Origin: an uncultured virus (IMG/VR IMGVR_UViG_3300042895_000198)
Taxonomy: Duplodnaviria > Heunggongvirae > Uroviricota > Caudoviricetes
Reading direction: 5' to 3' (one strand)
Virus record (IMG/VR): IMGVR_UViG_3300042895_000198
Coordinates: 53,605-73,604 of that record
DNA: 20,000 bases
Made by a program: the position numbers and the translations under genes
In this document: in pieces, positions 13,375-16,486 of the stretch
Numbering within the stretch: the stretch's first letter is position 1
How the letters are laid out: each line of letters begins with the position of its first letter
Notes under the pieces: model-generated
What the model saw: only the letters and a program-made list of their open reading frames with translations
Told to the model about the DNA's origin: nothing
Databases searched by the model: none

Positions 13375-13520
13375 TGGCTACACTACATCACGTATGCGAT
13401 AACTGCGATTCACAATTCACAATCAAATATGATGTGGAAAAATGTGAAGATGATCCTCACTTCTGTCCATTCTGTAGCGAATACATACTAGAGAATGACA
13501 CAGAAGATGAGGATGATTAA
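13374..13520 (+). CDS. 48-aa zinc-ribbon protein with acidic tail
   Basis: Below the ORF cutoff: MATLHHVCDNCDSQFTIKYDVEKCEDDPHFCPFCSEYILENDTEDEDD; TAATG coupling at both ends. Confidence 0.75.
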   Translation: MATLHHVCDNCDSQFTIKYDVEKCEDDPHFCPFCSEYILENDTEDEDD

Positions 13521-13921
13521 TGTGGTTATATAACAATATAGAATTTACAGAAGACATGGTTGGTGATTGGTTTGGGTATATCTACGAAATCACCAACCTC
13601 ATCGATGGCCGCAAGTATGTGGGTAAGAAATTATTCACACGAGCTGGTACAAAACAAATCAAAGGTAAAAAGAAAAAGGTTCGCCTTTCCTCTGGATGGG
13701 CGAACTATTGGTCTTCGTCCAGAGAATTGCAAGAAGATGTTAAAAAACTAGGAGAGAAGAACTTCAGTCGTAAGATATTGTACCTATGTAAAACTAGGTC
13801 AGAATGTTCATATAGAGAAACTAAGGAGATTTTTATCAGAGATGCACTACTAACCACGGAGTATTATAATAGTTGGGTTTCGTGTAAGATACACAAGGCT
13901 CACGTATTGAATAAACTATGA
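13520..13921 (+). CDS. GIY-YIG family nuclease-domain protein (Seg-like, catalytic domain only)
   Basis: GYIYEITNLIDGRKYVGKK, YWSSS, downstream Glu and YYN motifs. Confidence 0.75.
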   Translation: MWLYNNIEFTEDMVGDWFGYIYEITNLIDGRKYVGKKLFTRAGTKQIKGKKKKVRLSSGWANYWSSSRELQEDVKKLGEKNFSRKILYLCKTRSECSYRETKEIFIRDALLTTEYYNSWVSCKIHKAHVLNKL

Positions 13922-13965
13922 AACATTGTAAAGAACCTGATTCGTTACCTAAGAGAAGGAAAACC

Positions 13966-14712
13966 ATGGCTCGTAAGACAACCGCCAATACAATCATTGA
14001 AACCGAAAGAGTTTCAAGACCATCCAATCACCTCAGACTGAGGCTTGATGACCTTAAAACATTTGACCCGTTGACAGAAAATCAAAAACTATTCTTTGAT
14101 GCATACAAACGTGGAGATTATTTTGTAGCACTACATGGTGTTGCAGGTACAGGTAAAACCTTTTGTGCCTTGTATAAGGCCATTGAAGAAGTGATGGACA
14201 AATCAAACCCATTTGCTAAGATTATTATTGTTCGCTCTGCCGTACAGAGCCGTGAGATTGGCCACCTGCCAGGTGATGTAAATGAGAAGATGGAAATCTA
14301 TCAACAGCCGTATCGCCAAATCTGTGAGACACTATTTGGTCGCAAGGACGCATGGGATAGACTAGAGGAACAAGGCCACATTGAATTCATATCTACATCA
14401 TTCATTCGTGGTATGTCCTTTGATGATGCTATCATTATCGTGGATGAGATGCAGAATATGACCTTTGAAGAAATAGATACAGTTATGACCCGTGTTGGTT
14501 ACCGCTCAAAGATTATATGGTGTGGTGATTACAGGCAGACCGACCTGAATAAGAAGAAGAATGACGTAACAGGCATTCTCAAATTCTTTGATGTAGCACA
14601 CCACATGAATGCCTTCACTCGCATTGAGTTTACACCTGATGACATTGTACGCTCATCATTGGTTAAAGATTACATTCTTGCCAAACTACAATATGAGGAT
14701 GCAATGGACTAA
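13966..14712 (+). CDS. phoH: PhoH-family ATPase
   Basis: Walker A GVAGTGKT, IGHLPG, FIRGMSF, IVDEMQN, GDYRQTD, DIVRS; RBS AAGGA before ATG 13966. Confidence 0.93.
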   Translation: MARKTTANTIIETERVSRPSNHLRLRLDDLKTFDPLTENQKLFFDAYKRGDYFVALHGVAGTGKTFCALYKAIEEVMDKSNPFAKIIIVRSAVQSREIGHLPGDVNEKMEIYQQPYRQICETLFGRKDAWDRLEEQGHIEFISTSFIRGMSFDDAIIIVDEMQNMTFEEIDTVMTRVGYRSKIIWCGDYRQTDLNKKKNDVTGILKFFDVAHHMNAFTRIEFTPDDIVRSSLVKDYILAKLQYEDAMD

Positions 14713-14717
14713 GGCAA

Positions 14718-14733
14718 TAGAGTTCGGACTCTA
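14718..14733 (+). other. Short stem-loop after phoH (possible 3' stabiliser or weak terminator)
   Basis: TAGAGT-TCGG-ACTCTA, 6 bp stem, no U tract. Confidence 0.35.
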
Positions 14734-14740
14734 GTGAAAA

Positions 14741-14772
14741 ATGTTGCAGCTGCACATATATAATAGTATAAT
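14741..14772 (+). promoter_or_regulatory. Sigma70-type promoter overlapped by a palindromic operator (TGCAGCTGCA)
   Basis: TTGCAG (14744-14749), 17 bp spacer, TATAAT (14767-14772); perfect palindrome at 14745-14754 flanked by ATG...CAT. Confidence 0.65.
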
Positions 14773-14791
14773 CACTAATATCGTAAACACT

Positions 14792-14950
14792 ATGTTCAAA
14801 CTCTTTTCTTACCTATTATCCTTCTTTGAAGGCACCAGTTACCAATCACGCTTGGACAGATACCTTTCCAATCGTAGTGTAACTGATGCATCACAGCTAG
14901 AATACTATGTCAGAGAGTTTGAACGTAATCAACATAAGGCATATCTGTGA
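14792..14950 (+). CDS. Small DUF3563-like protein
   Basis: MFKLFSYLLSFF...RLDRYLSNRSVTDASQLEYYVREFER resembles the YL....D...LE...R..E pattern of betaproteobacterial DUF3563 proteins (by eye). Confidence 0.5.
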   Translation: MFKLFSYLLSFFEGTSYQSRLDRYLSNRSVTDASQLEYYVREFERNQHKAYL

Positions 14951-15051
14951 AAAACATTCTAAACACTATTTACAAAGCATTTGTAACCCTTGGTAGTTTC
15001 ACTAAGGAATACCGAGAAACCAAATACGGTGCATACCGCACCGGCAAATAA
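14947..15051 (+). CDS. 34-aa amphipathic peptide
   Basis: GTGA overlap with the upstream stop, AAGG upstream; MKNILNTIYKAFVTLGSFTKEYRETKYGAYRTGK. Confidence 0.45.
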   Translation: MKNILNTIYKAFVTLGSFTKEYRETKYGAYRTGK

Positions 15052-15074
15052 CCTATCGTCTAAGGAGATAAACC

Positions 15075-15323
15075 ATGGCCAATTCTATTTTTACACCATT
15101 ATATTTTGCAAACTACTTCGTTGACCAAGTACAAGATGCAAAGAACAAGATTGTTGACACATTCGTGTTTGATGACAAAATCAAAGCATCCATTAAAGAC
15201 TTCGTTGAAGCACAACGTGACTTCACTAAGCAAGTAAACCGCACAACTAATGAAGTTGCTGAGTTGACTACAGTAACTCTCAAAGAAATGGCTGAGAAGA
15301 CAGTCAAAGCCGCTAAGATTTAA
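15075..15323 (+). CDS. Phasin-like amphipathic helical protein
   Basis: Strong RBS TAAGGAGA; 82 aa predicted all-helical, Ala/Lys/Thr/Phe-rich, no Cys or Trp; downstream of a TGC-palindrome promoter. Product assignment is tentative. Confidence 0.5.
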   Translation: MANSIFTPLYFANYFVDQVQDAKNKIVDTFVFDDKIKASIKDFVEAQRDFTKQVNRTTNEVAELTTVTLKEMAEKTVKAAKI

Positions 15324-15327
15324 TTGT

Positions 15328-15362
15328 TATACATATGCTTTGGAGGATATCTGAAGCATATG
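15328..15362 (+). promoter_or_regulatory. RBS/start-codon-sequestering hairpin with overlapping late-promoter-like TATACATA
   Basis: CATATGCTTTGGA (15332-15344) pairs with TCTGAAGCATATG (15350-15362), 13 bp including 2 G-U. It contains GGAGG and ATG 15360. Confidence 0.6.
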
Positions 15363-15614
15363 AAAAAACTAGTAGCGCATCGTGCAAATAAACGATTTAT
15401 GGATATAGCATTCAAATCACAATCGTGGCAACCAACTGAACGCAATGGATGGATTATAAAATTCTCCATTTTTAATGATGACAAGATATTGTTTGTGTTT
15501 CTCTCCAGATATACAGGCCAGACAGTTATCAGAGAGTTTGGTGATGAAGATGCCGCTGTGGACTATATCAACCTCATAACCGATTTAGATGCCGAAGAAT
15601 GGCACGTACTATAA
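15360..15614 (+). CDS. Hypothetical protein
   Basis: GGAGG upstream of ATG 15360; ends just before a terminator. Confidence 0.7.
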   Translation: MKKLVAHRANKRFMDIAFKSQSWQPTERNGWIIKFSIFNDDKILFVFLSRYTGQTVIREFGDEDAAVDYINLITDLDAEEWHVL

Positions 15615-15622
15615 TCAGGTAT

Positions 15623-15649
15623 AAACCCGCTTCGGCGGGTTTTCTTTTT
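15623..15649 (+). terminator. Rho-independent terminator with C(UUCG)G tetraloop
   Basis: AAACCCGC-TTCG-GCGGGTTT followed by TCTTTTT; this tetraloop is typical of T4-like phages. Confidence 0.92.
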
Positions 15650-15662
15650 GGCCACTATATAA

Positions 15663-15696
15663 TTGTACCGCAATAAAATTATGGTTAGTATATAAT
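15663..15696 (+). promoter_or_regulatory. Probable sigma70-type promoter
   Basis: TTGTAC, 17 bp spacer, TAGTAT; also TATAAT at 15691-15696; RBS AGGAGG follows. Confidence 0.45.
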
Positions 15697-15714
15697 GTTA
15701 CATTAGGAGGAAAC

Positions 15715-15936
15715 ATGAATGATAAGTTGAAAGAGATTGCCCTACATGCAGGTGGCAGTCATTACCCTGTTGTTGGTGGGGAAACACTAGAGAAATTTGC
15801 CCGTCTATTGATTGCCGAGTGCATTGATGCGGTAAAGAATACACCAACAACAGCCGCATTTACTACATTTGACAAAGCTGTGGTTGATAATACGATTGCA
15901 AATAGTGTCAAAGCCATTGAGCAGAGGTTTCTATGA
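15715..15936 (+). CDS. Hypothetical phage protein
   Basis: Perfect RBS; MND..KEIA..AG...LEKFA.L.I.EC pattern common in small phage ORFs. Confidence 0.75.
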   Translation: MNDKLKEIALHAGGSHYPVVGGETLEKFARLLIAECIDAVKNTPTTAAFTTFDKAVVDNTIANSVKAIEQRFL

Positions 15937-16352
15937 AAATAGGCTTTACCTGTTCGGCATTTGATTTACTACATGCCGGTCACATTCTAATGCTCAAAGA
16001 GGCAAAGGCACAATGTGACCACCTGATTGTTGGGTTACAGACTGACCCAACCATTGACAGAGCAACTAAGAATAAACCTATCCAAAGCGTCTTGGAACGA
16101 TACATCCAACTGTCCGCAGTAAAGTATGTGGATGAGATAGTGGTTTATGAAACAGAGCATGACCTGTTACAAATACTCAAGGCATACAATATTGATATTC
16201 GGGTATTAGGAGAAGAATATGAGAACAAGCCATTTACTGGCCATGACCTACGAATTGAAACACACTTCAATAAACGTACCCATAGTTTTTCCACTACCGA
16301 ATTGAGAAACCGTGTCATTGACAGGTACAATGAGCAGGAGTATAAGAAATGA
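15933..16352 (+). CDS. Cytidylyltransferase-family protein (glycerol-3-phosphate cytidylyltransferase/TagD-like)
   Basis: HIGH-type motif FDLLHAGH, LIVGLQTD, ER...L.AVKYVDE, RTHSFSTTELR. Confidence 0.88.
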   Translation: MKIGFTCSAFDLLHAGHILMLKEAKAQCDHLIVGLQTDPTIDRATKNKPIQSVLERYIQLSAVKYVDEIVVYETEHDLLQILKAYNIDIRVLGEEYENKPFTGHDLRIETHFNKRTHSFSTTELRNRVIDRYNEQEYKK

Positions 16353-16486
16353 TAGACCTCATAAATGCCTTTATGATGGGTGTATTTGCCACACTACTGT
16401 ATCAAATTGTGAGAGAATTAGACCTCGTTGGTAATTTAATACAATTATTTAAAGATTGGTCTAATAATGAGCAAACAAGAAGATAA
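16349..16486 (+). CDS. 45-aa membrane peptide
   Basis: ATGA overlap, AGGAG upstream, hydrophobic N-terminus MIDLINAFMMGVFATLLYQIV; fills the gap. Confidence 0.5.
   Translation: MIDLINAFMMGVFATLLYQIVRELDLVGNLIQLFKDWSNNEQTRR

Follow-up and report, generated by a model that had tools for sequence, protein, structure and literature searches.

A PhaR-type box in two spacing alleles over the promoter of a small-gene phage cassette

The cassette and its promoter

We analyzed a stretch of 20,000 nucleotides (hereafter, the window) that makes up the final 20 kb of one viral contig of 73,604 bases (IMG/VR record IMGVR_UViG_3300042895_000198), and here we describe a cassette of four small genes (A to D) in this window together with an inverted repeat that overlaps its promoter and resembles the operator of PhaR, the proteobacterial repressor that senses polyhydroxybutyrate (PHB) granules. 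The region is one transcription unit composed of a host-sigma-70-type promoter, four small genes, and a terminator. The promoter lies on the + strand at 14744..14772 and has the −35 element TTGCAG (14744–14749), a 17-base spacer, and the −10 element TATAAT (14767–14772); a second TATAAT is present at 14759–14764. The −10 agrees with the consensus at six of six positions, and because the −35 fits TTGACA at only three of six, the site was not listed by a promoter scan. The operator-like inverted repeat, ATGT-TGCAGCTGCA-CAT (full sequence ATGTTGCAGCTGCACAT), occupies 14741..14757 and has the spacing TGC-N4-GCA in place of the TGC-N3-GCA of the PhaR-type box: its core reads TGC-AGCT-GCA, and the N3 register is absent on both strands. 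The perfect palindrome is limited to the 10-mer TGCAGCTGCA at 14745–14754, with the outer ATGT and CAT arms one base out of register, and this 10-mer is present in a single copy in the contig. A palindrome overlapping the −35 of a TTGCAG-17-TATAAT promoter, as claimed in a preliminary description of this DNA, is thus confirmed by direct reading.

The cassette and its promoter recur in 38 related viral contigs that encode gene C at 80–100% identity, and we refer to the window and these 38 related loci as the 39 versions. All four genes of the unit are on the + strand. Gene A (14792..14950) encodes 52 amino acids (aa), is a remote relative of the DUF3563 family, and is present in 35 of the 39 versions. 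Gene B (14947..15051) encodes 34 aa with the conserved core LGSFTKEYRE, and its GTG start overlaps the stop of gene A (GTGA). Gene C (15075..15323) encodes an amphipathic two-helix hairpin of 82 aa and is preceded by the ribosome-binding site AAGGAG (15062..15067, + strand), seven bases 5' of the ATG; the strong ribosome-binding site attributed earlier to the last of three genes is therefore real, and across the 38 related loci it reads AAGGAG or AAGGAA 32 times and AAAGGAG, AAAGGA, or TAAAGGA in the other six. Gene D (15360..15614) encodes 84 aa and is conserved directly 3' of gene C. The unit is closed by an intrinsic terminator on the + strand (15623..15650) with the stem AAACCCGC-TTCG-GCGGGTTT, which has eight pairs, five of them G-C, followed by a T run. 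The extent proposed previously, 14741..15323, takes in genes A, B, and C and leaves out gene D and the terminator, though both are part of the unit. Its first base, 14741, is an in-frame ATG within the palindrome; diverged homologs with a GGAG ribosome site of their own start at the equivalent of 14792. Three small amphipathic-helix genes were described before; three small genes do precede gene D, and gene C is strongly amphipathic (maximum hydrophobic moment 0.67 vs 0.44 ± 0.08 in shuffles), whereas genes A and B lie only weakly above their own shuffles.

Genes A and B are encoded together in 34 of the 38 related contigs and are missing in L014, L020, L021, and L024. In eight of the 38 related loci (L008, L011, L030, L031, and L035–L038) the cassette is preceded by a different sequence. 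The box and promoter are kept despite this replacement of the upstream flank, and therefore the promoter travels with the cassette; it is as a cassette that the unit passes between related phages. A TATAAT matching at six of six positions is found 16–18 bases after the −35 in 29 of the 39 versions (17 bases in 28 versions and 18 in L014).

Two spacing alleles of the box

The box at the promoter occurs in two forms. TGC-N4-GCA is present in 18 of the 39 versions including the window, as TGCAGCTGCA in 17 and as TGCAGCTGCG in one, whereas TGC-N3-GCA is present in the other 21, as TGCATTGCA in 16, TGCAATGCA in four, and TGCGGTGCA in one. Conservation of the palindrome upstream of homologs, which the preliminary description had anticipated, thus holds for the box, which is kept in the related loci, and not for the exact N4 form of the window. 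Relative to N3, the N4 allele has one additional base at the dyad center and lacks one A after the GCA; the two alleles are equal in length, and the 17-base promoter spacer is kept in both. The N3 centers seen are ATT, AAT, and GGT, all of which fit R-N-Y. We placed the allele label on a midpoint-rooted tree of the linked 540 bases that included 38 rows, with L012 dropped because its locus is too short. The label requires at least six changes on this tree, at least four of which are forced by well-supported branches, and the most divergent clade is all N3. Under midpoint rooting we infer that N3 is probably the older state and that recombination probably moves the alleles between backgrounds. 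The two alleles represent a natural experiment in which one promoter is found with the canonical and with the shifted spacing.

We compared both alleles with three published motifs. The PhaR motif of Ralstonia eutropha, YTKNTGCRNYGCANMAR, is a palindrome with a single central base (PMC12849132), that of Bradyrhizobium diazoefficiens, TGCRNYGCASMA, was obtained from DNase footprints, with PHB abolishing the binding in vitro (PMC6201568), and the PhbF motif of Herbaspirillum seropedicae is TG-N-TGC-N3-GCAA (PMC3206438). The same account of B. diazoefficiens describes a phaP4 site that overlaps the −35 and lists in its Table 2 the exact 12-mer TGCATTGCAACA as the site of a PhaR-repressed gene (PMC6201568). 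Against these motifs, the commonest N3 form, TTGTTGCATTGCAACAT, agrees at 16 of 17 positions for R. eutropha, 11 of 12 for B. diazoefficiens, and nine of nine for H. seropedicae, and the N3 forms overall agree at 14–16, 10–11, and 8–9 positions, respectively. The window N4 box in strict register agrees at 12 of 17 positions of YTKNTGCRNYGCANMAR and eight of 12 of TGCRNYGCASMA. Its half-sites are intact, with ATGTTGCA matching YTKNTGCR at seven of eight positions and TGCACATA matching YGCANMAR, as a right arm with shifted center, also at seven of eight, and weak PhaR binding to the N4 box is therefore conceivable. The pattern TKNTGCRNYGCANMA (20-bit) was found in five related records (398 kb) only at the cassette promoter of the single record with the N3 allele, and its reversed control was found nowhere in these records. 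The published 12-mer consensus is not enriched over the contig (six sites at 11 of 12 or better vs 14 expected).

In bacterial genomes the exact 16-mer TTGTTGCANTGCAACA is present in at least 120 places. Among the matches listed, 80 loci had flanks, and the first open reading frame encodes a Phasin_2 protein in eight of these and PhaC (PhaC_N) in one; all nine loci are from Alpha- or Betaproteobacteria, and at the phasin loci the box flanks or overlaps TTGCAA-type promoters. About 14 more of the listed matches fall within the metH coding sequence and are unrelated. A matched N4 control, TTGTTGCANNTGCAACA, had phasin or PHA-synthase (polyhydroxyalkanoate synthase) neighbors in 0 of 80 loci vs nine of 80 for N3, again among the matches listed, and the N4 loci belong mostly to Firmicutes, Bacteroidota, gut lineages, and similar groups, not to PHB-storing proteobacteria. 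Upstream of 30 Burkholderiales phasin genes we found 49 TGC-N3-GCA sites distributed over 27 of the 30 regions, vs two N4 sites, so that a motif comparison with betaproteobacterial phaP promoters, which had been suggested as a check, came out, for the Burkholderiales, against the window copy. Given the motif matches and the occurrence at bacterial phasin promoters, the N3 allele is an instance of a real operator. The PhaR-like operator of the preliminary description consequently stands for the cassette family, in which the N3 allele is carried by 21 of the 39 versions, and not for the window copy itself. PHB_acc_N, the DNA-binding domain of PhaR, was not found in the contig or in four relatives, including one that is 95% complete, and hence any PhaR that acts on the cassette would be that of the host.

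Two further observations were made in these scans. In four alphaproteobacterial loci (L056, L091, L102, and L105) the exact PhaR-type 16-mer adjoins a methylmalonyl-CoA mutase gene, which may be a further PhaR target. The N4 control, TTGTTGCA-NN-TGCAACA (L160–L239), adjoins MarR-family genes in seven of 80 loci among the matches listed, and in about 13 of the 80 listed loci it is flanked by nrdD (anaerobic ribonucleotide reductase) on one side and a gene for a Crp/cNMP-binding regulator on the other.

Cassette products, genomic setting, and expression

Searches of genes A–D against PHROGs and NCBIfam returned nothing below an E value of 0.004 and no meaningful name; gene B had no match in Pfam, PHROGs, or NCBIfam, and gene D none in Pfam or PHROGs. 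The kinship of gene A with DUF3563, which had been proposed by eye, holds at the level of remote profile similarity, and the Pfam model is not reached directly. An hhalign comparison of 11 phage gene A sequences with 20 Burkholderiales DUF3563 sequences gave a probability of 93.6% (E value 2e-7) over 44 of 52 columns with 32% identity, and in a protein atlas DUF3563 is the only named neighbor of gene A (score 0.89, 190 shared features). One of the 11 gene A family members matches PF12086 (E value 0.043), which is the only Pfam family matched by any of them; gene A itself does not reach the Pfam gathering cut-off of 26.9 bits, with no match in Pfam at E values of 1 or less, and PF12086 has none on the whole contig at E values of 10 or less. 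A word search for gene A relatives returned close kin only (nine proteins), and in bacterial genomes there was one weak partial match, in a metagenome-assembled genome of Anaerolineales.

DUF3563 genes were found in 16 of 121 sampled Burkholderiales genomes and in two of 121 sampled Alphaproteobacteria, where the center genome of both samples was chosen for having the family and the Burkholderiales tally includes one unpublished genome. Upstream of 20 bacterial DUF3563 genes, TGC-N3-GCA is present as 17 sites in 12 regions and the N4 form twice. The density of the N3 core in these upstream regions is 3.4 per kb vs 0.78 per kb in the rest of the loci, and the N2, N4, and N5 spacings have densities of 0.2–0.6 per kb. 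A score of 15 or more of 17 on the R. eutropha motif is reached in 11 of the 20 DUF3563 upstream regions vs 45 of 400 windows drawn at random from these loci. No mention of DUF3563 was found in the literature searched, and the enrichment of PhaR-type boxes at genes of this family is a first lead on it. Within the set of Burkholderiales loci L281–L301, a divergent gene for a LysR-type regulator lies beside the DUF3563 gene in L285, L289, L293, L294, and L298.

Gene C belongs to a family with 32 representatives and at least 353 small proteins, none of which is named or has a Pfam domain and some of which are encoded on contigs of up to 218 kb. Its AlphaFold2 model is a two-helix hairpin (helices 8–30 and 34–81) with a mean predicted local distance difference test score (pLDDT) of 90.6. 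That gene C is phasin-like, as had been suggested, is not borne out as homology: it matches nothing in Pfam at E values of 1 or less, Phasin_2 has no match on the contig at E values of 10 or less, hhalign gave probabilities of 0.5% against eight phasins and 1.5% against 30 Burkholderiales phasin domains, and a Foldseek search of the PDB with the model returned nothing below an E value of 0.8, although a plain helical hairpin is a fold that cannot discriminate. A sequence-profile search of the PDB gave nothing below an E value of 0.1, and tblastn against deposited phages gave no match. Among 29 gene C relatives, two match Phasin_2 (PF09361) below its Pfam gathering cut-off of 24.9 bits, with E values of 0.0078 and 0.02. 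The nearest atlas neighbors of gene C with Pfam families are Phasin_2 (0.86; present on 13% of that cluster), PHB_acc, and PHA_synth_III_E, and one viral neighbor cluster is automatically named phasin family protein; we take both as leads only. Two large repeat proteins matched gene C: the match of P0017, which consists of cadherin-like repeats, was judged spurious, and the sole ground for setting P0014 aside is that it matched in 13 separate stretches. At the DNA level, the segment from the 3' half of gene B to the start of gene C (14990–15045) is near-invariant, even in a clade in which gene A is 44% identical, and the B–C junction can form two hairpins, one of which is GGTGC-ATACC-GCACC at 15027–15043 (fold z −2.25, with no compensatory pair seen).

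The contig has a G+C content of 37.7%, and nearly all of its genes are on the + strand. Those in the window include genes for ThyX, both ribonucleotide reductase subunits, a nuclease, a SegE-type GIY-YIG endonuclease, PhoH, a GH19 lysin, and a holin. CheckV estimated the completeness of the contig at 42%, and a 157.7-kb relative is rated 95% complete. The stretch is present in lake-water metagenomes. In its layout the contig is like T4-type phages, and the unit looks like that of a T4-like lake phage. Directly upstream and outside of the unit, the phoH-like gene (13918..14712, + strand; Pfam PhoH, E value 3.2e-45) ends 28 bases 5' of the box; the best matches of its product are from cyanophages at less than 48% identity and are uninformative on the host. 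The SegE-type endonuclease gene (13520–13921) adjoins phoH, and in L011 a further, inserted GIY-YIG gene separates phoH from the cassette; GIY-YIG genes at this junction fit homing-endonuclease traffic there. A nucleotide search with 13900–16400 against deposited phages found no match, and an Rfam scan of 14500–15800 found nothing near gathering score.

Several near-consensus sigma-70 promoters (TTGACA-17-TATAAT) lie in gaps between genes of the contig. A 212-base gap at contig positions 24391–24602 has two strong sigma-70 promoters with a G+C-rich structured stretch between them, and one of the two, at 24396, has a double −10 as at 14744..14772 (TTGACA, TATATAAT, TATAAT). In the window, two TATATAAT boxes are located directly 3' of the terminator (15650–15700) and ahead of the next small gene (15715–15936), and these may be the next promoter in a similar style. 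The sequence TATAAATA occurs four times in the contig, at 985, 7640, 10099, and 56977 (window 3373), only on the + strand and each time directly upstream of a gene start; we take these boxes to resemble T4-type late promoters. In L030, L031, and L035–L037 a TATAAATA box lies immediately 3' of the PhaR-type box of the cassette.

Contigs assembled from RNA libraries of four lake or freshwater metatranscriptome runs, each from a different study, cover parts of genes A, B, C, and D. Three of these contigs begin at 14785, 14793, and 14798, which is 13–26 bases after the −10, and none covers 14582–14769; as a weak hint, these starts fit a transcription start just after the −10. By itself, a lack of RNA-contig cover over any part of the stretch proves nothing.

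Readings of the window copy and comparison with known systems

The reading that we prefer, to which we assign a probability of about one-half, is that the window has an allele blind to PhaR, or strongly weakened, of a switch still present in its relatives. The sequence over the −35 would derive from a PhaR operator. In the N3 versions, host PhaR would keep the promoter silent as long as PHB granules do not titrate it off. In the N4 versions, the base added at the dyad center and the base removed just after it would have shifted the half-sites apart by one base, and this copy would fire as an ordinary early promoter. Because the N4 spacing is almost absent at natural phasin promoters (two sites vs 49), the window copy is most likely weakened or blind, and since the altered allele is the one in the window, this copy is probably insensitive to PHB. 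Expression restricted to cells with stored PHA, as envisaged in the preliminary description, is for the window allele doubtful. Binding of PhaR to the cassette box and its loss in the N4 allele are both predicted from the sequences of the alleles and their motif matches. A granule-related role of genes A and C is suggested as well, and the host may be a member of the Burkholderiales.

Several points weigh against this reading. One 10-base palindrome would turn up by chance in a contig this long. The conservation of the box is by itself weak evidence, because the related loci are close kin (80–100% identity in gene C). With 12 of 17 and eight of 12 matching positions, the window box is not callable as a PhaR site by sequence alone. 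Some dimeric repressors still bind when the spacing changes by one base, and the difference between the alleles is a predicted one. The bacterial N3 and N4 scans are samples, not censuses, and the N4 control was run at E values of 1e-8 or less and the N3 set at 1e-5 or less, although the N3 phasin matches are all at 2.9e-14 or less. No gene C relative was found in bacterial genomes and gene C is without demonstrable phasin homology, so the link of the cassette products to PHB granules comes from context and from the DUF3563 kinship of gene A. The RNA evidence is weak, because contigs assembled from RNA libraries may include DNA and do not fix the position of a 5' end.

A rather unlikely alternative, although the best placed of those considered here, is that the preliminary description applies to this copy, with host PhaR still binding TGCAGCTGCA over the −35 and the genes expressed only once PHB granules have drawn PhaR off. 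The half-sites of the window box are intact, the box is positioned exactly as the N3 box is in the relatives, and N4 is common (18 of 39 versions) and found in several backgrounds, which fits a functional state rather than decay. It is the spacing that speaks against binding: N4 is outnumbered by N3 at two sites vs 49 upstream of the 30 phasin genes, at two vs 17 upstream of the 20 DUF3563 genes, and at 0 vs nine of 80 listed loci beside phasin or PHA-synthase genes, and the R. eutropha report describes the PhaR sites as palindromes with a single central base (PMC12849132).

It is improbable, in our view, that the region is a promoter only, in which a TTGCA-type −35 creates the palindrome incidentally and no allele has an operator function. 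This would agree with the count of 10-base palindromes in the contig (78 vs 84 ± 8 in Markov shuffles), which makes one such palindrome unremarkable alone, with the lack of enrichment of the published 12-mer consensus, and with the close kinship of the relatives. The N3 allele, however, fits a 20-bit pattern found in 398 kb only at the cassette promoter, with none for the reversed control, and all three of its centers fit R-N-Y; moreover, the box is kept where the upstream flank has been replaced, and the first gene is a DUF3563 relative, with bacterial DUF3563 genes carrying the same box. Least probable is that the N4 palindrome is the site of another dimeric regulator of host or phage and that the allele switch re-wires the cassette away from PhaR: the MarR-family and Crp-type neighbors of the N4 pattern indicate that N4-spaced palindromes with such half-sites are used by other regulator families, but those loci are mostly from Firmicutes, Bacteroidota, and similar groups rather than PHB-storing proteobacteria, the right arm in the window is GCAC and not GCAA, the single copy of the 10-mer in the contig leaves no regulon visible, and no candidate regulator gene was identified beside the cassette.

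Beyond the preferred reading of the window copy as a blind or weakened allele, we offer tentatively, and as a possibility more than an expectation, a broader picture in which T4-like lake phages would read the PHB store of the host via PhaR, responsive N3 and blind N4 operators would be exchanged by recombination, and the switch would drive DUF3563-type and hairpin proteins that act on PHB granules or on PhaR. If true, these phages time an early gene set by the carbon reserve of the host using the host's own granule sensor, and the bacterial DUF3563 family, to which no function has yet been assigned, is placed in the PhaR regulon. In the literature searched, no phage was reported to use a PhaR operator.

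The cassette can be compared with four known systems. In T4-like phages, early promoters recognized by host sigma-70 have the layout of the other promoters of this contig, and the early genes are likewise small, being located here between genes of nucleotide metabolism; to our knowledge, such promoters have not been described as carrying a host-regulator operator on the −35, and no paper on this came up in the literature searched. DUF3563 proteins are 47–60 aa long, a range that includes the 52 aa of gene A, and share with it a hydrophobic N-terminus followed by YL(A/S)...D..LE.(R/Y).R..(E/D)R; gene A differs in a two-residue insertion between the YL and LE motifs and in being phage-borne. Phasins (Phasin_2, PF09361) resemble the gene C product in being small, all-helical, and amphipathic, but have a domain of about 100 residues in proteins of 170–250 aa, whereas gene C encodes 82 aa in two helices. 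The closest parallel is the PhaR/PhbF/AniA–phaP circuit of Cupriavidus necator (R. eutropha), H. seropedicae, and B. diazoefficiens. That circuit is on the bacterial chromosome and the cassette site is on a phage; many Burkholderiales phaP promoters have two boxes that flank the promoter, whereas the cassette has a single box over the −35; and the window differs in its N4 spacing, the TGC-N3-GCA core with a single central base being absent there and present in 21 of the 39 versions, and in products that are not demonstrable phasins. The cassette likewise has a TGC/GCA inverted repeat at a sigma-70 promoter of small helical proteins, the window box shares with the PhaR/PhbF operator its placement at the −35/−10 of that promoter, and the N3 allele of the relatives matches both the published motifs and the operators at bacterial phasin genes.

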